Under the pieces are notes generated by a model, which had not been told where the DNA came from, searched no databases, and worked only from the letters and a program-made list of their open reading frames with translations. Shown here piece after piece: positions 4,803-49,927 of a stretch of DNA of 64,000 bases; positions within the stretch are counted from its first letter, which is position 1, and the number at the start of each line of letters is the position of its first letter. Made by a program: the position numbers and the translations under genes. The stretch is taken from positions 13,805 to 77,804 of the forward strand of contig JAPDIW010000005.1 of the NCBI GenBank assembly GCA_029259415.1, in the 5' to 3' direction. Source of the DNA: Archaeoglobi archaeon. GTDB lineage: Archaea; Halobacteriota; Archaeoglobi; Archaeoglobales; Archaeoglobaceae.

Positions 4803-4856
4803 ATTATTTTTTAACTTATTTTCAACTTGCCTATCGTCTGGTTACAATCCCACATC

Positions 4857-18362: not shown

Positions 18363-18770
18363 TTAATCAGCCAGTTCAACAAAAACTCTTTTATCTTCTT
18401 TTAAATATCCTACCGGAACTCCAATTTGCTTTGCTCTCTTTTTCAGCTCCTTATCATTCGTGATTAAAATACAACCATACTTTTGAGCAGCTTCAAGAAG
18501 CGATGGATCCCCTTCACTCTCAGTCTCCACGATTTCAAAATGGTCAAGAAGTTTCAGTGCAAACCTTGCTGCAACTTTTTCCTTTCCCCTCAAGCTCGAC
18601 TCAAGCTTTTCAAGCTCTCTCTTTACGGAAGCTGTAACAAAAAATTTGTTGAAACCGAACTCTCTCAACTGTCCGATGACGTCGGCTTTGTTGAGGTAGA
18701 TGTACATCAAAACATTGGTGTCTACTACAGCACACCTTACTTTATTATTCCTGCTCCTATCAGTCTCCAT
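18363..18770 (-). CDS. PIN-domain protein (Fcf1/Utp24-like)
   Basis: [22 protein letters not shown]; conserved position after aIF2-gamma. Confidence 0.88.
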
Positions 18771-19960
18771 CTGCTTCCTACTCTCCTGCTGATAGCAACT
18801 CTGGAGCCCTTCTCCGCACAAACTGGCCTTCTTAGAGTTACTTCTACAACGTCATCTCTTGCAGAAGTCACCACACCGAGGGTTATTGCAGTGCCTATTG
18901 CGAGCATCAGCGGTTCATTCATCTTTATCTTCTCAACCTCTACCTCCTCATCGAGTCCGACAACCCTCTCAAGAAGGTTAACTTCCATGGTGAAACTCGT
19001 AAGCACATCCGGTAGCTCATTTGGGTGGCCAACAACATTACCTACAAGAGCATCACTTTTAGTTAATGCAGGATCAAGCTTCGTTGCAATTCCAACGAGA
19101 CCTCCGGGAGTGGCTTCGTCAACAAACCTTCCTGAAGCCACAATACTCTGGACTTCCGTAAAAAGCGGATTCCAGTTCCCCCTGTCGTCCTTAACTCCAG
19201 GCCTTATCTCGATCTCGTCCCCGACTTTAATCCTACCTCTTGAGAGGCTTCCTCCTACCACACCCCCAAGGAGCTTTTCTGGCGGAGTACCGGGCTTGTT
19301 GACGTCGAAGCTTCTTGCAACATGCATAAGCGGAGGCGAATCGAGGTCTCTTTCAGGTGTTGGGATCGTTTCTTCGATAGCCTCTATGAGAGCATCCATA
19401 TTCACCTTTTGCTGTGCAGAAATGGGAATTATTGGAGCATTTTCGGCAATTGTCCCCTTAACGAACTCCTTTATTTCCTGGTAGTTCTCCAATACTCTCT
19501 CAGGGGTAACGATGTCTATCTTGTTCTGAGCGATAACTATTCTATTTATGCCAATTATCTGTAAAGCCATCAGGTGTTCTTTCGTCTGAGGGCGAGGACA
19601 CTTTTCATTTGCTGCAATAACGAGTACTGCCCCATCCATTATCGCAGCACCGCTCAGCATGGTTGCCATCAGCATTTCGTGGCCGGGACTGTCAACAAAG
19701 CTAACCGTTCTCAAAATTTCCGTTTCAACACCATGAATCGGGCATTTTTCCTCAACAGTATATGCCTCAGGAGGCTCGCATTCAGGACACTTCCTGAAAG
19801 TTGCATCAGCATATCCGAGCTTAATTGAAATACCTCTTTTCAACTCCTCACTATGTCTATCTGTCCAAACTCCACTCAACGCAGCCACAAGAGTGGTTTT
19901 ACCGTGATCAACATGACCGACAAGTCCAATATTGACTTCAGGAAGCGGAACTTCACTCAT
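18737..19960 (-). CDS. eif2g: Translation initiation factor 2 gamma subunit
   Basis: [28 protein letters not shown]; real start MSEVP at 19960. Confidence 0.97.
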
Positions 19961-20306
19961 GAAATCAATCCCGAGGGGAATGTATTTAAATGTTGAGGGA
20001 TTTGCAGGCAGGTTAGTAGAGGAGCTCATCACGAAGCTGGCTGAAATTTGGGGGATAAACAAGGACAGTAACCCCGGCCGGATTGATGACGCATGACATC
20101 CGTAGCCCTCCAAACCTCAACATGCATCCGGTTTATTAATTCCTTATACATTCCACATAACCCGTTCTCTGCAACTTCTCCAATCTATTCATCTCTTTAG
20201 CCTCAAAATTCACAAACTCCTTGTCATCCGGTCTGATCTGCCATATACACCCCCAACCGTTCCTTGCCTTTCAACTCCTCATGCAGCGTTGCGCAATGGG
20301 GGGGCG

Positions 20307-20903
20307 TTATTCAACGTTCAACCCATGACCCTCAAGGGGGTCAAGGGAGGGGGGTTGTTCACCTATACTTGATTTCAAGATGTGATCCTCCCACATCACC
20401 TCTGAGAGCCACATCACCTTAACTTTATCCCTACCAAATATGTACTTCTGCCTCTTCATGTTGAGCAGTCCGAGGTCGAAGTGAGCAATGTTGTGACCGA
20501 TAAGGTGCTTGGGATTCTCCCTCAGGAACTCAAAAAACTGAACTATCAGATCCTCCTCGGTTGAGTAAAGATGAAATGCAACCTCAATCCCGTAATTCTT
20601 CAGCTCCTCCTTAATCCTCTCCCTTACCTCTTCATCAACAATGCCGTGAACGAAGAAATGAACCTTTTTGGCCGAGATATCATAAAGCTGGATGCTCCTG
20701 ACCTTCGAGTTCAACCTGTAGCTCTCAATATCGAGAACGTAAGCATCCTGAATCGGAAACCATCTTGAAGCATCCAAAAAACGCTTTGTCTCTATTCTTC
20801 TGTTAAAAGGTAAATCATCCAAACTGATGCCCTGACTCTGACTAAGATCAACCTCAACATCAATATCTCCCTGCCTCGCATTTAAATCAGCCAGGGTCAG
20901 CAT
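20307..20903 (-). pseudogene. N-terminal 3'-5' exonuclease region of a family B-like DNA polymerase, truncated
   Basis: ExoI VLDIES and ExoII LIGHNIAHFDLGLL present; no ExoIII or polymerase motifs downstream in any frame I translated. Confidence 0.7.
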
Positions 20904-20998
20904 ACTTCATACTCTGGATCAACACCGTTCAGCCGGTAAACCGACTTCCAGGAACAGCCCTCGTCATCCGGATCCTCAGAAACATTTTTATAAAATAA

Positions 20999-21022
20999 AA
21001 GCCCCTCAATATTGAGGGGCTT
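20999..21022. repeat. Perfect 24-bp palindrome AAGCCCCTCAATATTGAGGGGCTT (terminator- or cruciform-like)
   Basis: Read directly; followed on the minus strand by TTATTTTAT. Confidence 0.9.
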
Positions 21023-21060
21023 GCAGCTTAACGCTGTGAGTTCCTCCAATGCCTTCCACC

Positions 21061-21339
21061 TCAGTACTCCGCATTGATCCACTGAACCCTCTTTTCTCCC
21101 TTTGTGATGTACTTTGCCGGCACCTTCAGAATCACCTTGCCGTTCCTCTTCTCTCCGTGCTTCAGAGCTGACTGAATTGCCTTCTCGCCGAAGAAACCAA
21201 TCGCATCGATTTCCTCTCCATTGTGCCTCCCGTAGACGACCAATATTTTCTGGCCGTCCTTCTCGGTTGTCTGGGCATCCACCACCTCAATTTCTTCCAA
21301 ACCAAACAGATCTCCGAGTTCCAACCCCATTTCTACCAC
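21061..21339 (-). CDS. 92-aa beta-rich protein, possible ssDNA-binding protein
   Basis: Strong RBS GGAGGTGG; located just upstream of the polymerase fragment; function is inference. Confidence 0.6.
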   Translation of the reverse strand: MVEMGLELGDLFGLEEIEVVDAQTTEKDGQKILVVYGRHNGEEIDAIGFFGEKAIQSALKHGEKRNGKVILKVPAKYITKGEKRVQWINAEY

Positions 21340-21342
21340 CTC

Positions 21343-21492
21343 CTAACTTTCGCTTTTGCTCCCCGCCGGACTTGCACCGGCTGAACCGCTATCTCGGTGG
21401 GGAGCATCCAAATTCCTGGCCCTATTCTTGAGCCACCACTCCCTGAATGCCTCAACAGCCTCACAAAACCGGTCAAGAACGTCGTAATCCAT
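21343..21492 (-). CDS. 49-aa hypothetical protein MDYDVLDRFCEAVEAFREWWLK...
   Basis: Manual translation; RBS GGAGGG; coupled to neighbours. Confidence 0.55.
   Translation of the reverse strand: MDYDVLDRFCEAVEAFREWWLKNRARNLDAPHRDSGSAGASPAGSKSES
21357..21405 (-). ncRNA. Minimal tRNA-like structure (acceptor stem, T-arm, one short hairpin)
   Basis: GCTCCCC-ACCG/AGATAG/CGGT-TCA-GCCGG/TGCAAGT/CCGGC-GGGGAGC-A. Confidence 0.5.
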
Positions 21493-21494
21493 CC

Positions 21495-21659
21495 TCAACC
21501 CTCCTCAAAAATAGAAACAAGCTCTTCAGGCGGGATGTTCTCGACCAAATGCTTCACGTTCTTCAGTATCGTCTTCCTAAGGATCACCGGATCCTTGTTA
21601 AGTTCACGCCCAAGAATCCTCGCCATTCTGCCCAGCTCTGGATACACTACTCTCGGCAT
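21495..21659 (-). CDS. 54-aa small helical protein
   Basis: MPRVVYPELGRMAR...; RBS GGAGG. Confidence 0.55.
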   Translation of the reverse strand: MPRVVYPELGRMARILGRELNKDPVILRKTILKNVKHLVENIPPEELVSIFEEG

Positions 21660-21760
21660 GTCAGCCTCCACCCGCACCTGCTGCATCTCCAGCCCTCTTC
21701 AGTTTCCTCGAGTAAACCACCGCAGGGGCAAAGGCCAGAATCAACGAACTGCTGGAGCAT
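21647..21760 (-). CDS. 37-aa zinc-finger protein
   Basis: MLQQFVDSGLCPCGGLLEETEEGWRCSRCGWRLTCRE; RBS GGAGGG. Confidence 0.65.
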   Translation of the reverse strand: MLQQFVDSGLCPCGGLLEETEEGWRCSRCGWRLTCRE

Positions 21761-21762
21761 GC

Positions 21763-21930
21763 TCAACCCTCCAATTTTTTGACCTCTATTTTATTTTCAC
21801 ATATTTTAATAAGAACCTGCTCTCCACTTTTGAATTCAAGAACTTTCACGAGTGATTTTGGCACATAGATTCTCCCTGAACCTTTTTGATCTATGTGATA
21901 CCTACCTACGCCCACACATAAATCGCTCAT
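21763..21930 (-). CDS. AbrB/SpoVT-like regulator, 55 aa (missing from ORF track)
   Basis: MSDLCVGVGRYHIDQKGSGRIYVPKSLVKVLEFKSGEQVLIKICENKIEVKKLEG; RBS AGGTGA; paralogous to 22044-22226. Confidence 0.8.
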   Translation of the reverse strand: MSDLCVGVGRYHIDQKGSGRIYVPKSLVKVLEFKSGEQVLIKICENKIEVKKLEG

Positions 21931-22040
21931 TCTATCACCTCTGATAGAATTCTACAACCAATCCTATTTAACACTTTCGATAACCTTCGATAACTCTCGA
22001 CAAACAAAACTAGGTTTAAGAACCTTACAACAAATGATAA
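21929..22040. promoter_or_regulatory. Divergent promoter/operator region
   Basis: Inverted repeat ATTCTATCA-cctc-TGATAGAAT at 21929-21950; tandem TTCGATAAC x2 plus TCTCGACAAA at 10-bp period (about 21965-21995). Confidence 0.65.
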
Positions 22041-22043
22041 GTT

Positions 22044-22226
22044 ATGGCCGAAGAAGACAAAAGCATTCTTGTATCGGTTGGGAAGATTCACATCGACTCC
22101 AAAGGAGCTGGACGCATTTATCTCAAAAAGAAAGTAATTGATGCTCTTGAAAAGATTGGAATTCAGCACGGTGATGAACTCAGAATTGAAGTTAAAGACG
22201 GAAAACTCATTATCACTAAACTCTAA
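22044..22226 (+). CDS. AbrB/SpoVT-like regulator, 60 aa
   Basis: VGKIHIDSKGAGRIYLKKKV...GDELRIEVKDGKLIITKL. Confidence 0.8.
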   Translation: MAEEDKSILVSVGKIHIDSKGAGRIYLKKKVIDALEKIGIQHGDELRIEVKDGKLIITKL

Positions 22227-22265
22227 ACCGCAATTTATTTCAAGAACAAAATATACACAGAAACT

Positions 22266-22715
22266 ATGATCTATGCATATTCCTTTGCAATCTTCGCAAT
22301 CTTGGTCATTTTCTCGGGAGTGATCGTTATAGTTACTACCCTCATTCTTAAATTTTCCAAAAATGAGCAGCTCAAAGATCGTATTAAGCCTATTGACTTC
22401 TGGCTTACCAAGACTATGAACTTCTCTTTGTTTATGATGCTTGCTTCCCTCACACTTGCTGCTATCTTCAAAGATCCCCCTGAGATGTTCATCCCTCAAA
22501 ACGTCTGGAACCTCGTTCAGCAACATGAAAGCCTTGGAGTTCTCGCTTTTGTTGTATACCTCTGGCTTACCCTCGACAGAAGACTCACAAAAGTCGAGAC
22601 GCAGATTGCACATATTGACGGAGATGTTGAATCCCTTCGAATTGACTTTAAAGAAGAATTCAAGCAACTTCGTGACGATATTAGACATATGTGGAACAAC
22701 ATCTCTAAGAAATAA
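22266..22715 (+). CDS. Membrane protein, about 3 TM segments plus C-terminal coiled coil
   Basis: Hydrophobic segments; LDRRLTKVETQIAHIDGDVESLR heptads. Confidence 0.7.
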   Translation: MIYAYSFAIFAILVIFSGVIVIVTTLILKFSKNEQLKDRIKPIDFWLTKTMNFSLFMMLASLTLAAIFKDPPEMFIPQNVWNLVQQHESLGVLAFVVYLWLTLDRRLTKVETQIAHIDGDVESLRIDFKEEFKQLRDDIRHMWNNISKK

Positions 22716-22850
22716 CATGCCTAACCTCCTCCGTGCACGTAGCCAGGGACGTGAGCACTCCACCTTTACAGGATCAAAATAGCGGCATCTCCTCGGGTTG
22801 TGTAGCCGGCAACGATAAGGGCTGTAAGGATCAAAGTTACTGCACCTCAT
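22716..22850 (-). CDS. Cys-rich small protein (N-terminus of the 307-aa track ORF); true 3' end uncertain
   Basis: MRCSNFDPYSPYRC...CRYFDPVKVEC internal repeat; coupled TGAATG start. Confidence 0.45.
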
Positions 22851-23183
22851 TCAACCCCTCCGAAAATCGCCGGCCAGCTTTCTCTTAAACTGCACATCCT
22901 CAGCCCTGACGAGCTTGGACATCACTCCTCCATCTTCCGTGAAAACCACGAAGAGGTAAGCCCGTTATTTTCCACAAGATGGTCGTGCTGCTCCCTATCC
23001 AGAGTGAACCTGCCCCTGCACCTCCCGACTCCGTTCCTGTGGCACTCCTGACAGGCTTTGATCTCCACCGGCTTACCGTCAATCTGCCCGTCAACGAGCC
23101 CGTTACTGAGAACTTGCAAGCTCCTCAGCCCTCTGACCGTTCAGGTATGCCCTCTCGTTTCTGACGGTTATCAGATCGCTCAT
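22851..23183 (-). pseudogene. Small PD-(D/E)XK nuclease (Holliday-junction-resolvase-like) with two frameshifts
   Basis: MSDLITVRNERAYLNGQRAEELA / DGQIDGKPVEIKAC...GRFTLDREQHDHL / YLFVVFTEDGGVMSKLVRAE in three successive frames. Confidence 0.7.
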
Positions 23184-23329
23184 TTCATCAGCCCCCTGTA
23201 ACAATCACGGCAGAGAGGGCAGCAACCGAGCCAGACCACCTGATCCTCTGACAACCGCTTACCGCAATAGGCACATTCTACAACTGTGATCCGCCTCTCA
23301 ACGTATTCCTTAAGAGTGATGAAAGGCAT
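23180..23329 (-). CDS. 49-aa zinc-finger protein
   Basis: MPFITLKEYVERRITVVECAYCGKRLSEDQVVWLGCCPLCRDCYRGLMK. Confidence 0.7.
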   Translation of the reverse strand: MPFITLKEYVERRITVVECAYCGKRLSEDQVVWLGCCPLCRDCYRGLMK

Positions 23330-23553
23330 CAGGCATCAGCCTCCTCAAAAACAAGATTTATGCAATCGTATGCGTTTGTCAAATGTTTAATCTTCAATCC
23401 GTGCTTTCTCGCCGTTTTCACGATTTTTCCAAAAGTTTCCTTCGCCAGAACTCCGTGAACTTTGAGATGGTAACTGAACTTTTCGCCATTGACAACTTCA
23501 ATCGAAGACGCCTGCGGCAACTCGTCAAGCAACCTCTTAACATCCTCAAACAT
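23329..23553 (-). CDS. 74-aa hypothetical protein
   Basis: MFEDVKRLL...VFEEADA; TGATG coupling at both ends. Confidence 0.7.
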   Translation of the reverse strand: MFEDVKRLLDELPQASSIEVVNGEKFSYHLKVHGVLAKETFGKIVKTARKHGLKIKHLTNAYDCINLVFEEADA

Positions 23554-23672
23554 CAGGCAACCCTCCACTCCCTGCTGACGAGCTCCCTGAGCTCCCTCAA
23601 CCTCTGCTCCCTCGGCATGCCCCTGAGCTTCGCCTTGAGCTCCTCAACCGTCATCTCCCTGTAGCCGGTCAT
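23553..23672 (-). CDS. 39-aa hypothetical protein
   Basis: MTGYREMTVEELKAKLRGMPREQRLRELRELVSREWRVA; coupled. Confidence 0.6.
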   Translation of the reverse strand: MTGYREMTVEELKAKLRGMPREQRLRELRELVSREWRVA

Positions 23673-24019
23673 TAGGCCTCAGCCTCCTTCAGAATAGCAT
23701 CCTCAACCTTACTCTCAAGCCTCTCAAAATTCATCTCAAGTTCCTCAATTCTATCATCGAGCTCTCTAATTTTCTTTTTCAATTCAGCGATTTTGTTGTG
23801 CAATATTCCGATATCTGAATATAGCATTCCGATTGTATCGTTTGCATCAGCCTCCTCATCAAAACTCAAAAAACCCTGCTCCACCATGTTTTTGACACTC
23901 AACACAAGTTCACGCATGCATCTTGGACAAATCGGATATGCACCATCTATATGCCAGAATGTCTTGGCACCGCAGCCTCTGCAGTTTCCTGGAACTCCGA
24001 ATTTATCGTATAGTGGCAT
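23672..24019 (-). CDS. Zn-finger plus coiled-coil protein
   Basis: CRGC...CPRC followed by heptad repeats. Confidence 0.75.
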   Translation of the reverse strand: MPLYDKFGVPGNCRGCGAKTFWHIDGAYPICPRCMRELVLSVKNMVEQGFLSFDEEADANDTIGMLYSDIGILHNKIAELKKKIRELDDRIEELEMNFERLESKVEDAILKEAEA

Positions 24020-24525
24020 CAGGCATCAGCCTCCTCAAAGAAATCGCTTGAAAGAACTTTCTCGAACTCTCCAGCCCTTATCATCTCGGCCATGCGCTCT
24101 TTGTAGGTCTTCAGCGCCTTGAGCCTTGAAAGAGCTGAATCTCTGTTCTTCTTGAATTCCTCAATTCTCTCTTTTGTCTGGGCGATCATCTCATCGATGT
24201 CGAGAAGCTGGCACATCTTGGCCTTGGAGTCCTCTTCTTCGAGAAGCCTCTTCTTGCGATTTTCGAGATCGGCGAGATATCCTGTATCTTCTTCTATCTC
24301 CCTTTCGTATCTTTCGATTTTTTGTTCTGTATCTGCTATGAGCCTCAGATAATCCCTATACAGATTAAGAGCCTCCTCGATCTGCAGGACCTTGAAGAAG
24401 AGCTGGCCGATTACGGCGTCTGCATCCTCATTCTCGTCGATCGCAACTCTTAGACTGATGCGCTCGTTGTTGTAGTTCTTGAGGTTGAAAAGTCTCGAGT
24501 ACTCTACCTCTCTCACCTTCATCAC
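24019..24525 (-). CDS. Coiled-coil protein, 168 aa
   Basis: E/K/R-rich heptads; coupled start and stop. Confidence 0.75.
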   Translation of the reverse strand: MMKVREVEYSRLFNLKNYNNERISLRVAIDENEDADAVIGQLFFKVLQIEEALNLYRDYLRLIADTEQKIERYEREIEEDTGYLADLENRKKRLLEEEDSKAKMCQLLDIDEMIAQTKERIEEFKKNRDSALSRLKALKTYKERMAEMIRAGEFEKVLSSDFFEEADA

Positions 24526-24698
24526 GCATCACCATCCAAAATCTCCACGTCGGCCCTCCTCAGCTTACTCGGCTCGCCCGTGTAGGGGCAGAACCGCCAG
24601 TAAGCCTCGCAGTCGCACCTGTACGCACAGTGCTGGCAGTTTTGCGGGTCTCTAAAATCCACACTCTCGAATTCCGACGCCCGGACAAAACCGAACAT
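24522..24698 (-). CDS. 58-aa Cys-rich protein
   Basis: MFGFVRASEF...CQHCAYRCDC...CPYTG; RBS GGAGGTGG. Confidence 0.65.
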   Translation of the reverse strand: MFGFVRASEFESVDFRDPQNCQHCAYRCDCEAYWRFCPYTGEPSKLRRADVEILDGDA

Positions 24699-24973
24699 CA
24701 CACACCACCTCCAAAAAATCCCCTCAACCTCTCCTCGTCCGCCTCGTCCAGCACCAGGCCGGCGTGATGCCTGAGGTTCTCCAAGACCTCCTCGGCTGTC
24801 AGGCAGTGCCAGGTCCAGATGGTTCTCCAGCCGCCGTTCCAGCGGCGTTCCAAGAAGTCCACCCTGCATCCCTGCTTGCGTTTGTAGCGGCGGATGCGAA
24901 GCAGTTCGAGGCCGTTCCAGGTGCGGCCGAGGTTCAGGGTCAGTTCCTCATTCCGTTTCGGTTTTGGGGTCAT
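24698..24973 (-). CDS. 91-aa hypothetical protein, first gene of the leftward micro-ORF operon
   Basis: TATA about 40 bp upstream; W/R-rich beta segment weakly recalls PC4-like ssDNA binders (inference). Confidence 0.65.
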   Translation of the reverse strand: MTPKPKRNEELTLNLGRTWNGLELLRIRRYKRKQGCRVDFLERRWNGGWRTIWTWHCLTAEEVLENLRHHAGLVLDEADEERLRGFFGGGV

Positions 24974-25062
24974 GGTTTCAGACCTCTCTTATAGTCCCAT
25001 CTATGAAACTAATGGTATATAAAAGTTCCGAATTAGGGTTCTGGTTTCAAAATTGAAACTAA
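24973..25062. promoter_or_regulatory. Divergent promoter with paired half-sites TGGTTTCA / TGAAACTAA
   Basis: TGGTTTCA at 24973 and 25042; TGAAACTAA at 25004 and 25054; GTTTCAA-aa-TTGAAAC at 25044-25059. Confidence 0.6.
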
Positions 25063-26005
25063 AATTAAAATCAAAAAATTTAAAAGAGATACAGTATAAC
25101 TCTTGCCGAGCTGGTGTCATTATGCCCGAGTGGCTGGATAAATTCGTTAAGGCTACCAAAAAAGCGACCGAGCAGGTGATCGATTCTTCAAAGAAAAAAT
25201 TGAATGAGATGAAATTACTTAGGGAGCTGTCGTTGCTGGAGAAATCCCTTAAAAAGCAAGTTCTGGATAGAATGAGTGATAAAAATCTGGAGAGTATTGT
25301 TAAAAACGAGAAAATTAAGAGTAAAAGTTTACTTATCAAGAAATATAAGAAGGGTAAAATCGACCTCTGGGAATACTTTGACAAGGACGAGTTGACTGAT
25401 TTGCTTGCCGACGAGCTCGACCTCGAAACCGTCCTCTTCTACGCAAAAGAGTTCAGGGTAAAGACCACAGACCTGATCCGCCAGTACAAGGAGAGGAGGA
25501 AGATCGTGATAGCCAGGCTGGCGAAGCTTCGAGATGGTGTCAAGGACTACGGGTCGCAGGATTATGAGGAATACTCCTTCACACCCGATTTGCTCGATGA
25601 GGTGTTGAGTGTCATAAAATCAGAATTTGAGCCGGAGCCGCCCATTATCAACGAGATGGACCTCGAAAAGCAGTTGTCCCTGTTCTTAAAGATGAAGGGG
25701 TACCAGTTCAAGAGGCAGTACAGTCCGGACGGTAAATACAAGGTTGACATCGTTTTTAACGGTGAGATGGGTGTCGAACTGAAGATAGCCGATGATCCGA
25801 GAAGATTGCTGAGCTGCCAAGCCAGGTGAAGCTGTACAAAAAGTGGCTGAGGGATTGTGCTGCCGTAATAGCCGTCCCTTACGGTGTCGATGAGAGCAGG
25901 TTGAGAGATTACTTCGAGCTGCTTGATGAGGAGGGGATCAGGTACATCGTAATCCGCATACCTTACCGGGCTTAAAACTTAAAAAAATTAAAATCAAAAA
26001 ATTTA
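25061..26005 (+). repeat. 22-bp direct repeat AAAATTAAAATCAAAAAATTTA flanking the nuclease gene
   Basis: Copies at 25061-25082 and 25984-26005. Confidence 0.85.
25122..25975 (+). pseudogene. Helical N-terminus plus PD-(D/E)XK nuclease, one frameshift near 25802
   Basis: KVDIVFNGEMGVELK, then in a shifted frame IAELPSQVKLYKKW...IRYIVIRIPYRA (QxxxY motif). Confidence 0.75.
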
Positions 26006-27856: not shown

Positions 27857-28714
27857 CTAGTTCAGCCCACCCTCTTTATAAAGAACACGGTCAAGAACGG
27901 AGAGGTGGGACCTGAGCATCCTCATCCTCTCGGCAACAATTCCAAAAGCCTCCCTATCACCCAGACTCATCTCCTGCCTGTTCAGACGCTTCGAAAACAG
28001 GTTCCTCAAAAACCTCAAAAGCAGAATGAACCAGTACCTCTTCCTGTCGTCGAAAACCAAGGCAGCCCTCTTGCTCCTGCTGTAGCCCTTCCGCCTGAAA
28101 GCTCCCCTCACGCCGCTCGTGTAGCGGCCTATAAGCACATAGGTCTCGTTAGCGGCCCTCTTCTTGTGCTGCCCCGCCCTGCCCCTCACACCCTTAACCT
28201 GCCTCACGAGCTGGTTGAGGTTCTCCTGGGCCTTCGAGGGCGGGATGTACCACCTCCTCCTTCTCACCGTCAATGCAACCATGTGGACCTCGTGCCTGGT
28301 GATGGGGATGAAGAGCACCAGAGTGTCTGTGCGGCCGTCCCCCTTCTTGCCAGGCGAGAGGTGGATGTAATCTCCTGGTTGCTTGACCCCAGCGGCAGAC
28401 AGCATCTGCAAAAACAGCACCTGCATCTTTGAGGAAACATCTTCAAAATCAAAAGAAAAGGGAGGTAAGAACCTTCCAGAACGCCAGACGGGCTCGAAGA
28501 TCTCCCTGTTCAGGTCGAGAAACTCCGCCGCCTCTTTTGCCGTTCCTTTAAATCCATAATAAGTCAATGCATCAAGGAGAGCCTTTGGGAACCTCACACC
28601 TTGAGACCTGATAAGCCCCACTACCTCGTCGAGCTTACAGGCTAACTCTGAGAGGGATGAGATTAGGTTGTCGAAAGATGGTCCTTGAGTTGTTGAGGCG
28701 TCAGCTGCTGTCAT
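27857..28714 (-). CDS. 285-aa basic hypothetical protein
   Basis: Coupled behind an RHH gene; R/K-rich C-terminal half. Confidence 0.7.
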   Translation of the reverse strand: MTAADASTTQGPSFDNLISSLSELACKLDEVVGLIRSQGVRFPKALLDALTYYGFKGTAKEAAEFLDLNREIFEPVWRSGRFLPPFSFDFEDVSSKMQVLFLQMLSAAGVKQPGDYIHLSPGKKGDGRTDTLVLFIPITRHEVHMVALTVRRRRWYIPPSKAQENLNQLVRQVKGVRGRAGQHKKRAANETYVLIGRYTSGVRGAFRRKGYSRSKRAALVFDDRKRYWFILLLRFLRNLFSKRLNRQEMSLGDREAFGIVAERMRMLRSHLSVLDRVLYKEGGLN

Positions 28715-28886
28715 GTGCTTTCAAAAGTCCCCTATTGGTAAGATCTTCACGAATCAAGGCCCTAATGTACTCACTGATCGACTTTGCCCCCAGTATTGGC
28801 GATTCATTCTCTATTAACTGTTCTATGAGATCCTTCCATTCTGCAGGTACGTCAGACCAAACTCGATCGAAACCTTTACGCACCAT
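28701..28886 (-). CDS. Ribbon-helix-helix (CopG-like) regulator
   Basis: SISEYIRALIREDL signature. Confidence 0.8.
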   Translation of the reverse strand: MVRKGFDRVWSDVPAEWKDLIEQLIENESPILGAKSISEYIRALIREDLTNRGLLKAHDSS

Positions 28887-28989: not shown

Positions 28990-29310
28990 ATGGTTGAAGA
29001 ATTGGTAAAAGGTTTAGCAAAATCAGGTGCAATTAAAATCCTCAGAGCACTAAAAGATGATGGCAAACGATTGACGGATCTTGTTAGAGAAGTTGATCTT
29101 GATAAATCGACGGTATGGCGTCGTTTAGAGGAGTTTGAGAAAAAGTTATTCTTGGTTTATGTAGAATACAATAGAGAACTAAAAGCTCCAATTTATAAAT
29201 TAACACCATTCGGCCTCAAAATCCTCCAAAAGCTCGAAGAAATAGAGCAGATCTACGAGGAGGAGATGCAGAAGGCTCCTCCGAAGGGGAGGGCTTTTGT
29301 TGAGGAATGA
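28990..29310 (+). CDS. Winged-helix transcriptional regulator
   Basis: IKILRAL, LDKSTVWRRLEE, YKLTPFG. Confidence 0.85.
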   Translation: MVEELVKGLAKSGAIKILRALKDDGKRLTDLVREVDLDKSTVWRRLEEFEKKLFLVYVEYNRELKAPIYKLTPFGLKILQKLEEIEQIYEEEMQKAPPKGRAFVEE

Positions 29311-30409: not shown

Positions 30410-31348
30410 GCAATTACACCTGATCCTCCTGTAATCCAGCCCCAAAGCCTCCCACATTCCGACTGTCTCCTTGCACAGCCCATAATCTCTGAACCCCTTC
30501 TCCTCCAACAGGTCGATGACAAACCTGTACATCTCCAGTCTGACATCAAACCTCGGCTTCAGCCCCCAGTTACTTTTCTCATCCAAATACTTAACCCAGC
30601 TCGTATCCCTGGCACACCTTATGGTGGTGCTCAACCCCCTCAGCGTGCCGAGCGTAAATCTGTCGGGCTCAAATCTCCTGAAGATCTCCTCCACCAGCTC
30701 TCTGTAGTGCTCCCTCCAGCCCTCAACAGGGACCATCGGGTCAATCCTGACCCTCACAGGATATCCATGTTCATGGAGCTTGCGAGCTGCCTCAATTCTT
30801 CTCAGAGGATTGGGGGCTCCCTTCTCCCACCGCTCTGCAACCGGGAAGGCGTTGATGCTGAAACTCACTATAACGTTCTCGGGTTCAATCTTCAGAAGGT
30901 TGTCCACCCTGTCAGACTTGGTGACGAGAAGCAGTTTGTAGTTGTCCTGTTCCTGGAACATCCTGGCGAGTTTCACCGAAGCTGGTGGATTCTGGTACTC
31001 CCCAATAAGGGAGTCCGAGAGCTCACCAGCATTTAGCAACTCCTCCCTCGAATTGTGCTGGAAAAGAGCCGTAAGGTGCAGCTCGATCTTCTTCCAGTCC
31101 TTGACAAAAGGCCTCTTACCCCTGTCAAGGAGCCTAAAGGTCCCCTGCAGGTAGCACCAAGCGCAGTTGAAGGGACAGCCGTTAGCCCACTTCAGCTCCA
31201 GAAAATGGGGGCAGACAACGTCAGTGGTCTTCTTGGGCACAGGAGTGCGGTCAAACAGCTTGATGATGGACCCATCTCCGACACGTACCACCCTCTTTTC
31301 CATTTCTCCAGTCAGCGATGTTACATAGTCAACAACGACTTTTGGCAT
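30401..31348 (-). CDS. Spore-photoproduct-lyase-like radical SAM protein
   Basis: GCPFNCAWCYLQ, GELSDSL, LVTKS, SFSINA, RIEAARKL, RVRIDPMV; start placed at MPKVV. Confidence 0.85.
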   Translation of the reverse strand: MPKVVVDYVTSLTGEMEKRVVRVGDGSIIKLFDRTPVPKKTTDVVCPHFLELKWANGCPFNCAWCYLQGTFRLLDRGKRPFVKDWKKIELHLTALFQHNSREELLNAGELSDSLIGEYQNPPASVKLARMFQEQDNYKLLLVTKSDRVDNLLKIEPENVIVSFSINAFPVAERWEKGAPNPLRRIEAARKLHEHGYPVRVRIDPMVPVEGWREHYRELVEEIFRRFEPDRFTLGTLRGLSTTIRCARDTSWVKYLDEKSNWGLKPRFDVRLEMYRFVIDLLEEKGFRDYGLCKETVGMWEALGLDYRRIRCNCLL

Positions 31349-31507
31349 CTCCTCTACTATAAACCCATCCCACAAATTTAACTTTTTTTTGAATTGAACG
31401 CCTGGGAGATATCATCTTCATCATACCTTAATTTTCATCCTATATTAATTTTTCTCAACCCGCTTACAATGTTGATGGCTGTCATGCACGCAAAATAAAT
31501 TTGAGAC

Positions 31508-31777
31508 TCAGAACGACTTCTCATACCACTCCGCCACCGCCTTCTTGACCCTCTCAGGTGTGGCGAACCAGAGCATCCTCTCAAACAGGTCATCCAGCAG
31601 ATCCTGCCCCATCTCTATCCTGCAGCTCTTGAAGTCCACGTAGAACAAGCCGTATAATCGCCCAACGGCCTCCCTCATGGGAATGAGCTTCGCATCAACG
31701 TCCACCTTCTCGTCCTGGCCCTTGACCCTCAAAATGACCCTGAACCTGTAGTCATCCCTCTCGAGCTCCTCAACCAT
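31508..31777 (-). CDS. 89-aa hypothetical protein
   Basis: Coupled to the upstream 65-aa gene. Confidence 0.65.
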   Translation of the reverse strand: MVEELERDDYRFRVILRVKGQDEKVDVDAKLIPMREAVGRLYGLFYVDFKSCRIEMGQDLLDDLFERMLWFATPERVKKAVAEWYEKSF

Positions 31778-31967
31778 CCCTCTCACCCCTCAACCAATCG
31801 TAGAACCTCTCCGCCACCTCAACAACCTTTCCAGCATTTCTGTCCGGGCTGCTGAGCCTCGACTGTTCCGAGACCGTGACCACCTCCACAGCCAGTTTCA
31901 GTGCTGTGTGCCGGGCTATGCGCTCCTTCTCCCTATACATCTTCTCAATCCGCTCCTCCCGGCTCAT
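31770..31967 (-). CDS. 65-aa helical protein
   Basis: MSREER...IARHTALKLAV...VAERFYDWL; TATA CTTTATA 21 bp upstream (leaderless). Confidence 0.7.
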   Translation of the reverse strand: MSREERIEKMYREKERIARHTALKLAVEVVTVSEQSRLSSPDRNAGKVVEVAERFYDWLRGERDG

Positions 31968-32154
31968 GAATATCTCTACCCACGCGGGTATAAAGCTTTG
32001 AACCCCCAGATGCAAGTGAAAACTTATCTACACATAGAGATTTGTTTTAAGCTTGCACTTGTATCAAAAGGTGTTACCCGTCTAAGTTACAGTAAGATTA
32101 ACCATGAAAATAAAAATTCTGAGCGGTTTTCGATTCCAGGAGCTCTGCAGGATC

Positions 32155-32508
32155 TCACTCGAGGCAGTAACACCCAAGAGAGGGTATGTGGACATCACCC
32201 CTCAAATGCCTGACAGCAGCGGTGATCCTCTGCACGGTAGCCACGTCAAGCTCCCTCATCACGTTGTGGAGCGTGGACTTCTTTGGAGGATTTCTGTAGG
32301 TCCACCCGTGCTGTCTCAGCATGTCAAGGTTCTCTTGGCACCACCTCTCCGCCTGCCTCAGGCTCCACCCCTCCTTGAGGGTGAGGTAGATTACCGCCGT
32401 CAGCAGGGTGCGTGGGTAGGGATGTCTTCCCCTCTTCACCTGGTGGTGATCCGACCCACCGAGGACCATCCTGCACGCCTCGAGGATAACCTCGAACTCA
32501 TCCCCGAC
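32155..32508 (-). CDS. Stand-alone transposase-type N-terminal HTH domain (IS4/IS5-like), no DDE domain; start approximate
   Basis: RGRHPYP...LTAVIYLTLKEGWSLRQAE...PPKKSTLHNVMREL. Confidence 0.6.
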   Translation of the reverse strand, partial: VGDEFEVILEACRMVLGGSDHHQVKRGRHPYPRTLLTAVIYLTLKEGWSLRQAERWCQENLDMLRQHGWTYRNPPKKSTLHNVMRELDVATVQRITAAVRHLRGDVHIPSLGCYCLE

Positions 32509-32575
32509 CAAACTACCAGCACCCCTCAGACGCAATCTGACCTGTCCAAAAAATAGAATTTTGATGAACCCTATG

Positions 32576-33166
32576 TCAAACATCCAGCGTCACGGTAGCC
32601 TCCAGGATCTTGTCTCCGTTCCACCTCCAGACCTCGCTGTGTATGGTGTAGGTCCCGTGGCTCCAGCCCCAGATCTCGACGGTGTAGGTCTTAGTCTCGT
32701 TGGGCTCAAGGTTCAGCGGCACGGGGAACGGGGCGTTGAACTCGCTGATCCTGCCATCGGGGCCTATCACCTTCACGAAGCCCGTTACGTAGTCGATAGA
32801 TCTATTGTCTACGTTCTTCAGGGTGACCAACGCCGTTCCCGCATCCAGATCGACCGAGTAGTCCACGATCTCCAGGTCGTTGTCGGTCTCTTCAGCATAC
32901 ATCTCCGCAAACCTTTCGTAGCGCTTTTGAATCTCCATGTACTCCGCCGTCTCGCTCCTCCCCTTCTGCTCCAGCTCCCTCAGCCTGTTCTCGTACTTCT
33001 CCATGATCTTCTTCACGGCCCCATCGTATGCGTCGTCGCTCACTATGCGGAGCATTCTGCCTATCTCCATGACGTGCAGGTAGAGCTGATCTGTAACGTC
33101 CTCCAGGAACATTCCTAGGGGGGCCGCAACGACCAGCGAGAGCATGACCAACGCTGCACTATTCAC
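32576..33166 (-). CDS. Signal-anchored protein with coiled coil and C-terminal Ig/CARDB-like domain
   Basis: GTG start after GGAGGTGG; VTLKN...LEPNETKTYTV. Confidence 0.75.
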   Translation of the reverse strand: MNSAALVMLSLVVAAPLGMFLEDVTDQLYLHVMEIGRMLRIVSDDAYDGAVKKIMEKYENRLRELEQKGRSETAEYMEIQKRYERFAEMYAEETDNDLEIVDYSVDLDAGTALVTLKNVDNRSIDYVTGFVKVIGPDGRISEFNAPFPVPLNLEPNETKTYTVEIWGWSHGTYTIHSEVWRWNGDKILEATVTLDV

Positions 33167-33456
33167 GACTCCACCTCCCACACAAGGCAGGGAACCACAG
33201 CCCCGTTCTCCTGCTTCCTCGCTGACTTCACAGCCACATACCAGCGTCCCTTCCACCACACGGGAAACTCGTCACCGAAATCGGCGGTGGCGAACTTAGG
33301 ATGCCTCTGTGGCTTGGGAAAAATGGTCCTTATGCCGGTCCCCTTCCTCCCGTACACAACGTAGTCCTCATCCTCGAAGCGGGCCTGCTGCTTGAACCTA
33401 ATCGTGGTCCTCTCCCGCTTGGGGCGGGTCGCAACTCGTCTCCGCCTGGGCAACAC
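33163..33456 (-). CDS. 97-aa basic protein
   Basis: RBS AGGAGGTGA; coupled to the next gene. Confidence 0.7.
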   Translation of the reverse strand: MLPRRRRVATRPKRERTTIRFKQQARFEDEDYVVYGRKGTGIRTIFPKPQRHPKFATADFGDEFPVWWKGRWYVAVKSARKQENGAVVPCLVWEVES

Positions 33457-33473
33457 ATCTCACCTCCTCCAAC

Positions 33474-34697
33474 TTATCCGACAGGGCTCAGCTGGATCCT
33501 CACCACGTAGGGATTCATCGGATCCACAGCCGAGCCGTACACACCCATCCCTTTAGGAATGTTGTCCACAACCTTATAAAAAATATCGATAAAACCTTCG
33601 AACTTCACACTTGCCGTCCTTACCAACCTCGTCAGCTTGCTACGCTGGACATAGCCGAGTACGTATATCTCGTCTGCATTCTCCACAACTATCCTCTCAA
33701 GGGCATCTGGTGACTGGGTTTCCAAGAACACCGTCCACCCATACGATCTCGCCAGCACAGTGACCAGCCTTATTATCTCCCTTTTCGCCTCGAACTCGCC
33801 GGTTTCAGGAGCGTAGATGTGGCTCTCGGTTATGCCTATAAAGCACTCTTGCCTCTTGTAGGCCCTCTCGACCATCTTGAGCATCTGCGCAACAACGAAG
33901 CGCTTGATGTCTATATCTCCGAGATCGGACAGATCCACGATGTTAATCTGCTCTGGATGGATGTAGCCGTGCACGGTTTTGGCTTTGTTCACTTCAAGAA
34001 GCTGGTCCATCCTCAGCAGCTCGATGAAGCGCTTAACATGCAGCACCATGGTGTTGAAGTATGGGTCGTCCTGAAACCTGTAAAGCTCGTTCTCCACCGC
34101 ATCAACTAAGTCCTGGATAGTAATGTGGTTATCCCTACTCTGCCAGACCCTCTCCAGCACAAGTCCTGCTACCGTAGAGGACATCCGCTTGCCGAAGTAC
34201 TCTGCAATCGTTGAGTAGTCCAACTCGGCAAGCGGGATTTTGAGTTCAATTTCTTCCCTGCTCTCACTCTCTTTTAGTGGAACGAGATACCTCTGCGGTG
34301 AAGCACAGCCATCGGGTGGAGCGAGCCTGATTCTCTCTATGCCAGCCTCCCTTATCTGGTTTAGCGACGGTGAGCGGTTGAAGTCCAGGTCCCCCCTCTT
34401 CTCCTGGAATGCCACGATGGGGTTCTTGGTGGTCCTGTAATAGGCTTGGATGATGTTGCGCATGAGGTTCGTTTTGCCTATTCCCTTTCCCGCCACCACA
34501 AGGATCACCTTGCCCTTCTCGACTGAGTAGGCTGAGGGGTTAAAGTAGTGGGGCTGCATCCAGGGCGTGCGGTGACCTATTTTGTAGCCTATCTTCACCG
34601 CATTCTCGCACCCTCTGTATACCAGCCTGAGCGGGATGTACCTGTCGTCCCTCCTCTTCGGCAGCTGAAGCCTTGCCGTATTATATTTTAATAGCAT
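33474..34697 (-). CDS. HerA/FtsK/VirB4-like P-loop ATPase (putative packaging/extrusion motor)
   Basis: Walker A AGKGIGKT; Walker B region FIGITESH; LARSYG; FLETQSP. Confidence 0.85.
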   Translation of the reverse strand: MLLKYNTARLQLPKRRDDRYIPLRLVYRGCENAVKIGYKIGHRTPWMQPHYFNPSAYSVEKGKVILVVAGKGIGKTNLMRNIIQAYYRTTKNPIVAFQEKRGDLDFNRSPSLNQIREAGIERIRLAPPDGCASPQRYLVPLKESESREEIELKIPLAELDYSTIAEYFGKRMSSTVAGLVLERVWQSRDNHITIQDLVDAVENELYRFQDDPYFNTMVLHVKRFIELLRMDQLLEVNKAKTVHGYIHPEQINIVDLSDLGDIDIKRFVVAQMLKMVERAYKRQECFIGITESHIYAPETGEFEAKREIIRLVTVLARSYGWTVFLETQSPDALERIVVENADEIYVLGYVQRSKLTRLVRTASVKFEGFIDIFYKVVDNIPKGMGVYGSAVDPMNPYVVRIQLSPVG

Positions 34698-34727
34698 GTC
34701 CGTCGGACCTCCCACCGGACTCAACCA

Positions 34728-35267
34728 TCATCTTTTGAGCACCTGTCCGAGCTCACCCATAGTCATTCCACTATACTTGGAATGGTTGAAGTAGACGACC
34801 TTCCTGTCTGCTATTAGAATTGAACCGATCAGACCCTTTGATTCGAGCTCTTTCTCTATATCCGAGACCGTCTGCTTCTTCAACCCCAACATTCTGACTA
34901 TTTTTGTGGTCGGGGCTACGCCTCCGAGTTCCTTCAGCGTCAACAGGTAATTCTTCAGGTTGTCGCTGCCGTTGAGCGAGTTTAGGGCGCTTGCCAGCCA
35001 GTCCTCGAAATCCTCTTCGACCTCTGCTTCCTCGACCTCCGTTTCCTCTTCGGCCTCCATGCGCTTTACGGCGGAACTCTTCTCCTTCAGCTTGGCTATC
35101 GTGTGGATCGTCTCGTTATCCAGATCATCTATTGCCTCAAGCAGCCTCTCGAACTCCTCCAGCACGATCTCCATGTTGGGAAAGTCCTTGCTGATCTCCC
35201 TCAGCAGCTTCTCCAGGATCCTGTTCCGGTAGAGCATCAGCCTTCCTATGGTTTCGAGTTCGCTCAT
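34728..35267 (-). CDS. Coiled-coil plus C-terminal winged-helix protein
   Basis: Acidic linker; TTKIVRMLGLKKQTVSDIEKELESKGLI. Confidence 0.8.
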   Translation of the reverse strand: MSELETIGRLMLYRNRILEKLLREISKDFPNMEIVLEEFERLLEAIDDLDNETIHTIAKLKEKSSAVKRMEAEEETEVEEAEVEEDFEDWLASALNSLNGSDNLKNYLLTLKELGGVAPTTKIVRMLGLKKQTVSDIEKELESKGLIGSILIADRKVVYFNHSKYSGMTMGELGQVLKR

Positions 35268-36163: not shown

Positions 36164-36590
36164 CCTCGGCCACCTCCGATTTTACCAGCACTTCCACCCT
36201 CCTCCTCTCCTTGGCGTCGTGCAACTTCAACGCGGAGAGGAGCATCTGCATGACCGAGTATGCAACGAGGGCGTAGCCCACAACGTAGCCGTAGCCGACG
36301 TACTGGGCGTAGTCTGGAGCCACCACGAGGATCCTCTCGATGTACACGTTGGCGACGTCGCTGAGCCTCAGGATGGTCGTTCCCAGACCCAGAAAAACGA
36401 CCGAGTTGAGGAAGAACACCAGAGCTTCAAGAATCTCGGATGGGATCTCCCTTCTCTTCCCGTTTTTCTTCTCTCCGGTCTCGACGTCTTCTTCGTCGAT
36501 ATCTTCTACCTCAAAGTCATCCCAATTCTCTTCAACATCGACGTCCTCCTCATCAACCCGTCTTCGCCTGAACAACCTAATTCCTGTCAT
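36153..36590 (-). CDS. Membrane protein with acidic N-terminus and 2 TM
   Basis: D/E-rich tract followed by two hydrophobic segments. Confidence 0.75.
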   Translation of the reverse strand: MTGIRLFRRRRVDEEDVDVEENWDDFEVEDIDEEDVETGEKKNGKRREIPSEILEALVFFLNSVVFLGLGTTILRLSDVANVYIERILVVAPDYAQYVGYGYVVGYALVAYSVMQMLLSALKLHDAKERRRVEVLVKSEVAEDAS

Positions 36591-39228: not shown

Positions 39229-39229
39229 C

Positions 39230-39974: not shown

Positions 39975-39986
39975 CTCCGAGAAAAA

Positions 39987-48735: not shown

Positions 48736-49914
48736 TTAAAGCCTGTCGATTATGGGAATAGAGACTTTCTGTTTTTCTTTTTTATACCTAACAGGTTCCG
48801 AAAAATTCGGCTGCTTTCTTACCTTCTCACCATTTTTTCTGCTATCAACTCTGATATCTCTCAGTTTTTGCTTCTGCGGAATGTCCTCATAGCTTAAGGA
48901 TCCAACAAACTCTTTGTCCTTTATCCCTGTCATTATGGACACAACTCTAACAAAGCCCTCAAACTCCTTGTCGATTCTTGCACCCCATATGACGTTTGCG
49001 TAGTCATCAATCTCGAAAGTGAGGTTTCTGATAATCTCCTCAGCCTCCTTAAGCGTCAGATCATGCCCACCTGATATGTGCACAAGTGACCCGGTCGCCC
49101 CTCTGTAATCAACATCAAGGAGCGGATGGGATAGGCAGTCTCTGACAACTGCATTCGCCTTGTCCTGAGCTTTTGCTTCACCCACAAGCATCACAGCAAC
49201 ACCACCATGTCCCATTATAGCCTTAACGTCCGCAAAGTCGATATTTACCAGAGAAGGAATTGTTATCGTGTCAGAAATGCCTTTTATTGTTTCTGCAATT
49301 AGCTGATCCATTACGCTGAAAGCAGCATCTATCGGCAGGTTCGGATAGTAGTCGAGCAGCTTGTTGTTGTCGAGAACAACAACCGTGTCGCAGACTTCTT
49401 TCAATTCCTCCAAACCGTTTAAGGCCTTCTGAATTCTCGCCCTCTCAACCCTGAATGGCATCTGGGCAAAGCCAATTACGATTGCTCCCTGCTTCTTTGC
49501 CACATCTGCCACAACAGGGGCCGAACCTGTTCCCGTACCGCCTCCCATTCCAGCACAGACGAAAACCATGTCGGAATCGGAAAGCAGGTCTTCAAGGACA
49601 TTTCTCGCAAGCTCAGCAGCCTTTCTACCAATTTCGGGATATCCTCCAGCCCCAAGACCCCTCGTAATGCTTCTGCCAATCAAAACCCTCTTGTCGGCTT
49701 TCGTCCTCAAAAGCTGCTGCTTGTCGGTGTTGATTGCAACAGTCATGGCACTCTCCACATTCATATTGGACAGTCTGTGTACTGTATTGTTGCCGCTCCC
49801 TCCACAACCAACCACAACGATTTTCGGCGTCTCGAAGTCCTTTACATCCTCACTAAACCTGCTATTCCTCTCCTGCTCCAAATACTGTTGGGCCTTACTC
49901 ACAATACTTCTCAT
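48736..49914 (-). CDS. ftsZ: Cell division protein FtsZ (FtsZ2 type by context)
   Basis: [28 protein letters not shown]. Confidence 0.97.
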
Positions 49915-49927
49915 ACCAAACAACCTC

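Follow-up and report, generated by a model that had tools for sequence, protein, structure and literature searches.

What is the role of two small AbrB-type genes that diverge from a short spacer within an archaeal genomic island? The genes, called hereafter L (leftward) and R (rightward), lie in a window of 64,000 nucleotides, the whole stretch of DNA that was analysed, from an Archaeoglobi archaeon (assembly GCA_029259415.1, contig JAPDIW010000005.1, positions 13,805 to 77,804). The window carries the genes of aIF2-gamma (18737..20113, minus strand) and FtsZ (48736..49923, minus strand), and the pair sits inside an island of about 20.4–45 kb with shifting G+C content and genes of mobile-element type. 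The closest relatives of both proteins carry the label 'unclassified Archaeoglobus', and the host is an Archaeoglobus-like archaeon. An original prediction, made from the letters of the sequence, had viewed the locus as a bistable switch of cI/Cro type in a provirus. The analysis reported here gives good support to a conserved module of two repressors placed ahead of mobile-element replication genes, which it probably controls. We consider it likely that the module is a self-contained unit of transcriptional control of an integrated archaeal mobile element, in which both proteins act on one shared array of sites.

L and R are paralogs, sharing 38% identity over 53 residues (BLASTP, E 5e-12), and the alignment includes a motif common to both (VGRYHIDQKGSGRIY / VGKIHIDSKGAGRIY). 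Coordinates, spacer and BLASTP agree with the divergent arrangement, 113 bp apart and with a shared motif, that had been noticed first. L-type proteins are recognised by a conserved Cys5 and by VGRYHIDQKG.GRIYVPK, R-type proteins by VGKIHIDSKGAGRIYLKKK, with an EKIG insertion. In Pfam both matched MazE_antitoxin below threshold (PF04014; L, 20.5 bits, E 4.5e-4; R, 20.6 bits; cut-off 24.7). MraZ was the second-best match of L (E 0.0047), and some relatives have precomputed PF04014 hits.

AlphaFold2 models of the single chains, computed from a 60-sequence family alignment, had the same beta-beta-alpha-beta-beta order of elements in L (strands 10–13, 19–22, 39–44 and 47–52, helix 25–31; predicted local distance difference test score, pLDDT, 89.9) and in R (pLDDT 88.0). 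The top 15 Foldseek matches of the L model were all MazE, AbrB-N, SpoVT, VapB or C68 (3o27), with probabilities of 0.72–1.00 and template modelling scores of 0.50–0.68; their E-values stayed weak (no better than 0.05), as the domain is so small. Foldseek also matched the model to Sso7c4 and to chains named 'histone-like protein'. A profile of the L/R family matched only MazE, SpoVT and AbrB chains of the PDB, from E 0.007 (MazE), and a search of 1.84 billion representative proteins at E<=1e-10 gave no more than 28 clusters of the L/R subfamily. As judged from the models, L and R are a narrow, divergent subfamily of the SpoVT/AbrB/MazE swapped-hairpin superfamily, and paralogy, models and Foldseek together uphold the proposal of two divergent AbrB-fold proteins. 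The conserved GR..D.KG.GR.Y loops are consistent with an interleaved-hairpin dimer that would contact DNA through the loop arginines. Both proteins are a DNA-binding domain alone, and their chains end with the fold, with no toxin-binding tail. R is a single 60-residue domain with no other Pfam match and no domain for induction sensing, cleavage or oligomerisation, and no antirepressor was identified. L-type proteins, unlike R-type ones, conserve a single cysteine close to the N-terminus (MSDLC.., MRDIC.., ..STCKFY..), which could serve a disulfide or a redox function.

Homologs of R, nine of them close, were found in metagenome contigs and metagenome-assembled genomes (MAGs) of Archaeoglobus and Geoglobus, and distant family members occur in Thermoplasmata, including Picrophilus and Cuniculiplasma genomes. 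A hidden Markov model scan of 68 fetched relative loci (designated L001, L007 and so on) gave 43 distinct, assessable rightward members. In at least 25 of these 43, from Archaeoglobus, Geoglobus and Thermoplasmata, a strong family member was present on the opposite strand, mostly 60–150 bp upstream, so that the same divergent pair, which the original prediction had proposed to look for in other archaeal proviruses, does recur widely in archaeal elements. About ten more had a weaker-scoring opposite-strand partner. Both genes are under purifying selection, with ratios of nonsynonymous to synonymous change of 0.09–0.2 for L and 0.07–0.19 for R. L is therefore a genuine gene, conserved in many relatives. 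The spacer itself is 82% identical to that of L001 and 81% identical to that of L007, a conservation far above that of the flanking genes at synonymous sites, which differ at 43–69% (window versus L001: 65% in L, 43% in R). A 27-bp core of the spacer is invariant in four lineages.

Inspection of the spacer revealed about seven copies of TTC[G/T]A[C/T]A[A/G]C, all on one strand, arranged as two phased triplets (A and B) and one additional site (C, Table 1). An expectation-maximisation search over the spacers of six lineages yielded the motif TTC[G/T]A[C/T]A[A/G][C/A], with a constant strand and with spacings that are multiples of 10 bp. To control for circularity, a weight matrix was trained on the distant lineages L010, L013 and L016 only. 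With this matrix the spacer was the top site cluster of the 64-kb window on either strand; its score was 54.4, whereas 100 shuffles averaged 28.5 and never exceeded 42.4. The weight-matrix scan found no second operator cluster elsewhere in the island. The second-best 9-mer cluster of the window (58228-58347, minus strand, 43.9 versus the null maximum of 42.4) lies within a host open reading frame (ORF) and is probably due to chance. The 10-bp period of triplet B had been seen in the original prediction and was confirmed; triplet A, phased in the same way, is an addition to it. The first 1.5 repeats of triplet B are invariant in four lineages. In triplet A, the middle site reads TTCGATAGA / TTCGACAGA in L007 and L001, and L040 has three clean copies. 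Site C has a counterpart at the equivalent position in L001, L007 and L016 (TGCTACAGC in L001 and L007).

Two A/T boxes, invariant in the window, L001, L007 and L040, may serve as the promoters. Archaeal TATA boxes are centred near −26/−27. By this spacing rule, leftward transcription is predicted to start near 21941, at the Shine-Dalgarno (SD)-like GAGGTGAT, and rightward transcription at the R ATG, which would make the R transcript leaderless. Triplet A occupies the interval from the leftward TATA-like box to the L start codon, where it covers the SD and the predicted start of L transcription. Triplet B lies between both TATA-like boxes and abuts the position of the TFB recognition element (BRE) of the leftward promoter. 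Site C lies between the rightward TATA-like box and the R start. The layout would then read L start, triplet A, TATA-L, triplet B, TATA-R, site C, R start.

The spacer also contains the inverted repeat that had been reported over the leftward ribosome-binding site. It is present, its arms (21929-21937 and 21942-21950) being perfect over 9 bp around a 4-nt loop (CCTC, or GAGG on the minus strand), and it covers the leftward SD-like GAGGTGAT (21934-21941, minus strand) together with two start-codon bases. Shuffling of the region produced an inverted repeat of at least 9 bp in 83 of 20,000 cases, and the palindrome is therefore unlikely to be due to chance. Its perfect form is confined to the window: L007 has 5-bp arms, L001 one mismatch and L040 no palindrome. 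It exists because, by coincidence, the middle A site (TCTGATAGA in the window, TTCGATAGA in L007) is complementary to the weak first one. The palindrome is thus lineage-specific, a by-product of two adjacent operator copies. As an RNA hairpin it would have a free energy of −13.1 kcal/mol at 37 C; at 80 C, the growth temperature of the host, only −1.75 kcal/mol would be left. Three points led us to reject riboregulation by a hairpin over the ribosome-binding site as its main role: the stability of the hairpin at 80 C is marginal, the loop contains the predicted transcription start, and the structure is not conserved.

Table 1. Positions of the features of the L/R locus in the window (PWM, position weight matrix; the TATA boxes are predictions).
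Feature	Position	Strand	Details
L gene	21763..21930	−	55 aa, AbrB/MazE-fold, first gene of the leftward string
R gene	22044..22226	+	60 aa, AbrB/MazE-fold, probably leaderless
Divergent control region	21931..22043		113 bp
Operator triplet A	21930..21958	+	TTCTATCAC, TCTGATAGA, TTCTACAAC; starts 21930 (weak), 21940, 21950; PWM hits
Operator triplet B	21976..22004	+	TTCGATAAC, TTCGATAAC, CTCGACAAA; starts 21976, 21986, 21996; exact 10-bp period
Weaker operator-like site C	22026..22034	+	TACAACAAA; PWM score 8.6
Predicted leftward TATA box	21964..21971	−	TTAAATAG on the − strand, CTATTTAA on the +
Predicted rightward TATA box	22015..22022	+	TTTAAGAA; ends 22 nt before the R ATG
9-bp-arm palindrome	21929..21950		ATTCTATCA-cctc-TGATAGAAT
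Cassette (L, spacer, R, membrane gene)	21768..22724		957 bp; CCTCC at both edges
Membrane protein gene	22266..22715	+	149 aa, 39-nt gap after R
Leftward string after L	20307..21766	−	six ORFs
39-aa ORF	21647-21766	−	zinc-finger-like (CxC...CxxC); ORF after L
63-aa ORF	21495-21686	−	
51-aa ORF	21343-21498	−	
92-aa ORF	21061-21339	−	
61-aa ORF	20897-21082	−	
198-aa ORF	20307-20903	−	PolB-exonuclease domain; Pfam E 1e-6; PHROG 'DNA polymerase' E 6e-8

Do L and R act on the same sites? Comparison of the relatives bears on this question. The order L start, sites, TATA, sites, TATA, R start is retained where the operator sequence differs. L026, L042 and L027b have TTCTACCAC / TCGACCAC direct repeats, while in L061, L067, L029, L031 and L043 CCTTACGG-N3-TGTAAGG palindromes flank a TATA box on both sides; no class-II palindrome is present in the window. 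The first-hairpin residues of both partners track the operator class. Pairs with xHxD-(S/Q)KG went with TTCKAYAR operators (7 of 7 pairs) and pairs with Y/F and SKG with TCKACCA operators (3 of 3 pairs), while Y with KD/RD residues pairs with GTAAGG palindromes. In a neighbour-joining tree, the Archaeoglobi L-type (..Y[IV]PK, N-terminal Cys) and R-type (..YLKKK) proteins formed separate clades, each with all operator classes. The duplication therefore came before the dialects, to which the two copies adapted in parallel. This parallel co-variation with the operator is the strongest computational argument that L and R would act on the same DNA.

Sub-site preferences may also differ within the array. 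In class I, the B-side site adjoining TATA-L is always G-type (TTCGA), and the A-side site adjoining it is T-type (TTCTA) in four of five lineages; speculatively, these patterns hint that L and R favour different sub-sites. One element contains two complete divergent AbrB pairs side by side (L027 1271-2944 / L044 2098-3771), which differ in dialect, one being GTAAGG-type and the other TCGACCAC-type.

The genes behind L were then compared among the loci, L having been proposed to head a replication operon. This stood for relatives. In L003 and L007 the string runs from L through small ORFs to a Rep of 623–689 aa that has an HVHNH motif and shares about 26% identity with the rolling-circle initiators of pGT5, pTN1 and pTP1, so that L occupies the position of CopG, as first gene of an operon with a replication initiator. 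It stood only in part for the window, where the string offers no more than a PolB-exonuclease fragment. The first three ORFs after L (39, 63 and 51 aa) are conserved behind L in L001–L010. The 198-aa ORF matches the exonuclease domain of family-B DNA polymerases only. It crosses a recombination breakpoint (20441-20443), on either side of which contigs of related elements diverge; the polymerase gene is thus cut short beside aIF2-gamma, where recombination or integration has left a junction. A Thermoplasma MAG has MCM on the leftward side. At Picrophilus-type loci a single family member faces an operon of prim-pol and D5 helicase, and the leftward gene adjacent to the spacer is not a family member. 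Three unrelated kinds of replication protein are thus found left of family-controlled spacers, rolling-circle Rep, MCM and prim-pol/D5, to which the window adds its PolB-exonuclease fragment.

At two of these loci (L020 4159-4347, minus strand; L021 4162-4326, minus strand) a convergent AbrB-like gene of more canonical type comes after the lone Picrophilus-type member, and the spacer facing the prim-pol/D5 operon has TTCTGTAA / TTTGTAA repeats. In L003 the C-terminus of the 689-aa rolling-circle Rep-like ORF (2807-4876, minus strand) reads into a tRNA-like sequence (..GFEPTT..), which suggests that this element is integrated at a tRNA gene right after rep.

On the other side, the membrane protein gene is probably co-transcribed with R. 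Its 149-aa product has clear hydrophobic helices at residues 9–27 and 50–68 and probably a third around residue 90; the C-terminal tail is charged. A homolog (51% identical) lies behind R in the L010 lineage; elsewhere the place is taken by a third paralog, R2 (L001–L009 and L016), by HicAB (L007, L018) or by ParE modules (L013, L014). The rightward copy had been likened to cI followed by an exclusion gene. The membrane protein is there, and the exclusion analogy is weak because the R cargo is interchangeable, a membrane protein being found in two lineages. A metatranscriptome contig covers 22301-22552, within the membrane gene, and a second covers the 63-aa gene of a related element. Being unstranded, and with DNA carry-over possible for the first, these assembler contigs from public metatranscriptomes are suggestive of expression, though not of its strand.

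Is the pair a fixed part of its element? At both edges of the cassette (Table 1) CCTCC corresponds to the GGAGG ribosome site of the next gene. The cassette is missing at the same position in co-occurring related elements, as seen on assembler contigs from three public sequencing runs (X1, X4 and X12); the sample of X4 contains elements with and without it. Their joints pass from 21767 to 22725/22728 in X1 and X4, and from 21772 to 22774 in X12. These contigs are about 8% diverged, and therefore represent different elements and not excision products. In L010 the pair stands further upstream in the same gene order, so that the module is portable within the leftward string, from about 24973 down to 20307. 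No att-type repeat linking the left flank to the tRNA region was found, and, the loose ends at breakpoint 20441 not being repeated in the window, reconstruction of an empty site was impossible.

The following mechanism is proposed for the two-repressor module. Two TATA-type promoters, with about 50 bp between them, would drive divergent transcription of L and R, and both proteins would read the shared array of about seven same-orientation 9-bp sites, one helical turn apart. R would be made from a leaderless transcript together with a 'maintenance' cargo (here the membrane protein, elsewhere toxin-antitoxin pairs or the third paralog). Oligomers of R would form over triplets B and A, all on the same helical face, and would thereby block TATA-binding protein (TBP), transcription factor B (TFB) and RNA polymerase at the leftward promoter, leaving the L-headed replication or early string silent or throttled. 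When the leftward promoter fires, L, as the first product, would bind the same array, perhaps with a different preference for G-type and T-type sites. It would feed back on its own operon as a copy-number control, as CopG does for rolling-circle rep operons, and may also shut the R promoter. A homeostatic circuit of copy control is as likely as a lysis-lysogeny switch, because the characterised Archaeoglobi viruses are chronic, the AbrB family was not found in their records and the scans of the window revealed no virion gene.

Several points weigh against a shared-array control module of this kind. Neither protein of the window reaches the PF04014 cut-off. The promoter boxes are predictions assigned by rule, and a leftward leader beginning right at the SD would be unusual. 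A two-fold symmetric dimer is not an obvious reader of direct repeats. Some Thermoplasmata loci have a lone family member opposite the replication operon, with no paralogous partner. The block is absent from related elements and is thus not essential to that backbone there. Finally, the replication gene of the window is a truncated fragment, and the copy may accordingly be a relic.

Two alternatives survive best. According to the first, the pair is a bistable immunity switch of cI/Cro type in a temperate archaeal virus, R ensuring maintenance and exclusion with the membrane protein, L acting like Cro, and L-R heterodimers contributing. In lambda, cI is co-transcribed with rexAB, and the homologous repressors diverge from a short spacer with a shared multipartite operator (OR1-3, PRM/PR). 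L and R are likewise divergent homologs, one heading the replication or early operon, as L does in relatives, and the other sharing its transcript with accessory 'carrier-state' cargo. A short spacer with shared multipartite sites is present, the sharing being inferred from the co-variation with operator class. The differences are that cI and Cro have a helix-turn-helix fold and palindromic sites, while L and R have a swapped hairpin, direct repeats and archaeal TATA/BRE promoters, and that R lacks a C-terminal oligomerisation or cleavage domain and any sensor. A precedent for such a role is ORF4 of SNJ1, a repressor of lysogeny and immunity of the MazE superfamily (PMC10123103).

Scans for the virus itself did not establish the provirus of the original prediction. 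Library scans of the ORFs revealed no virion or integrase gene in the 20–45 kb island. The candidate integrase beside tRNA-Leu (48736..49923) proved to be FtsZ. Searches of IMG/VR, INPHARED and PLSDB with R, L and a 942-aa secreted protein of the island gave no match. The sole characterised viruses of Archaeoglobi, the host class, are chronic, non-lytic thalassapleoviruses (PMC10919331). The N-terminal parts of three VP4-like proteins from the supplement of that study matched nothing in the window or the loci, and the strings GRIY and GRLY are absent from its GenBank supplements. The only AbrB protein annotated there, GahPV1_gp03, is a canonical AbrB outside the L/R family. The gene types in common with thalassapleoviruses are rolling-circle Rep (in relatives), zinc fingers, pairs of ribbon-helix-helix (RHH) and winged helix-turn-helix proteins, and toxin-antitoxin modules (PMC10919331), and by analogy the gene content resembles that of plasmid-like or thalassapleovirus-like elements. 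Taken together, a temperate immunity switch is possible but rather doubtful.

The second alternative is plain negative feedback, in which L would be an autorepressor like CopG and R an independent autoregulator of its cargo, the sites being shared by common ancestry. L is the first gene of a string that, in relatives, ends in a rolling-circle Rep related to Rep75 of pGT5, and the first position is the classical place of CopG in plasmids of pMV158 type; the interchangeable cargo of R points the same way. However, the recognition residues of L and R shift in parallel with the operator class despite the age of their clades, and the spacer is too short for independent control, with about 100 bp and TATA boxes about 50 bp apart. 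Independent feedback can be held only tentatively.

A more ambitious form of the two-repressor module would be a portable and re-programmable archaeal switch. The ancient L/R duplication, with at least three operator dialects of its own, would be pluggable before Rep, MCM, prim-pol or PolB. Competition, together with titration through heterodimers, on direct repeats arrayed along one face at TATA/BRE promoters would decide between silent carriage and replication. We regard this extended form as unlikely.

Little speaks for the two remaining readings. Orphan antitoxins, or remnants of toxin-antitoxin modules, would account for MazE_antitoxin being the best Pfam match, for the name 'antitoxin component' given to relatives in the sources, and for the HicAB and ParE modules that often adjoin R in relatives. 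They are very improbable: the 55–60 aa proteins have no part beyond the DNA-binding domain, no toxin follows L or R in the window (a zinc-finger-like ORF and a membrane protein do), the adjoining modules have their own antitoxins (HicB, RHH), and the conserved partner is a paralog and not a toxin. A chromatin-like, low-specificity coating of DNA with incidental repeats, as by Sso7c4-type 'histone-like' AbrB proteins, is suggested by the Foldseek matches to such chains and by a different AbrB protein of GahPV1 annotated 'histone-like', but is hardly credible for a site cluster that is unique in the 64-kb window, conserved and co-varying with protein residues.

To place the two-repressor module among known systems, we compared it with characterised repressors; our searches of the literature found no description of a paired, divergent and co-evolving AbrB duo. 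By analogy, it most resembles C68 of pSSVx and SNJ1 ORF4 in kind, cI/Cro and CopG-rep in logic, and MraZ in DNA reading. C68 binds its own divergent spacer (PMC5569661). Like C56 of pSSVi, it is a small single-domain regulator of swapped-hairpin AbrB type on an archaeal mobile element; its divergent partner is a CopG-type RHH protein and not a paralog, and it belongs to another, crenarchaeal, sequence family. To our knowledge, no phased direct-repeat array has been described for C68. SNJ1 ORF4, from a haloarchaeal sphaerolipovirus, is a lysis-lysogeny and immunity repressor of the MazE superfamily (PMC10123103; PMC12426801). The likeness lies in a master repressor of the MazE/AbrB superfamily; ORF4 differs in being experimentally tested and a single repressor. 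We know of no report of a paralogous divergent partner for it.

MraZ, an AbrB-fold regulator, recognises in its own promoter a short series of direct repeats with a spacing of one helical turn. The likeness to L and R is confined to this operator logic, MraZ having two fused AbrB domains (about 150 aa) that form large rings and being encoded by a single bacterial chromosomal gene, whereas L and R are single domains of 55 and 60 aa. CopG of pMV158 and ORF56 of pRN1 are similarly small repressors, encoded by the first gene of an operon that ends in a replication initiator; they have an RHH fold and no divergent paralog, while L and R are AbrB-type. F55 of SSV1 binds tandem repeats overlapping the transcription start and BRE of early promoters (PMC5569661). 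It is thus also an archaeal mobile-element repressor acting on tandem promoter repeats, with the differences that its fold is RHH, that several dispersed promoters are involved and that it partners with host RadA. Very few archaeal mobile-element circuits are understood, those that have been studied being SSV1 F55, SNJ1 ORF4 and the three-gene module of SNJ2 (PMC10123103).

The module is compact, two proteins of 55–60 aa and about 110 bp of DNA, and is conserved across two archaeal classes. Its dialects, which co-vary with protein residues, provide a natural data set for DNA reading by the swapped-hairpin fold and for repression at TATA/BRE promoters. In Archaeoglobi and Thermoplasmata the module also serves as a marker for the region where replication is controlled in integrated elements that otherwise resist annotation. 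Should the module indeed be bistable and orthogonal, it could become a source of genetic parts for hyperthermophile systems.

In the remainder of the island, about 40 neighbouring ORFs searched against PHROGs and Pfam were mostly blank, and no known RNA family was found in 20000-25500. A leftward, G+C-rich block (31000-44600, 50–57%) encodes several membrane proteins, a HerA/DUF87-type ATPase (33474-34724), a subtilase (37834-39228) and the 942-aa secreted protein, which has CarboxypepD_reg domains (40505-43333); virus libraries gave no match for this block. The window also contains a divergent pair of an RHH protein (61 aa, 28701-28886, minus strand) and a winged-helix protein (106 aa, 28990-29310, plus strand; HTH_45, HxlR). 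Pairs of this type are repeated up to three to four times per locus, with ParE toxins, in L001, L002, L007 and L018. Finally, a 52-aa canonical SpoVT/AbrB protein (44700-44858, minus strand; PF04014, E 7e-12), outside the L/R subfamily, is encoded close to a drop in G+C content that may mark the right end of the island.

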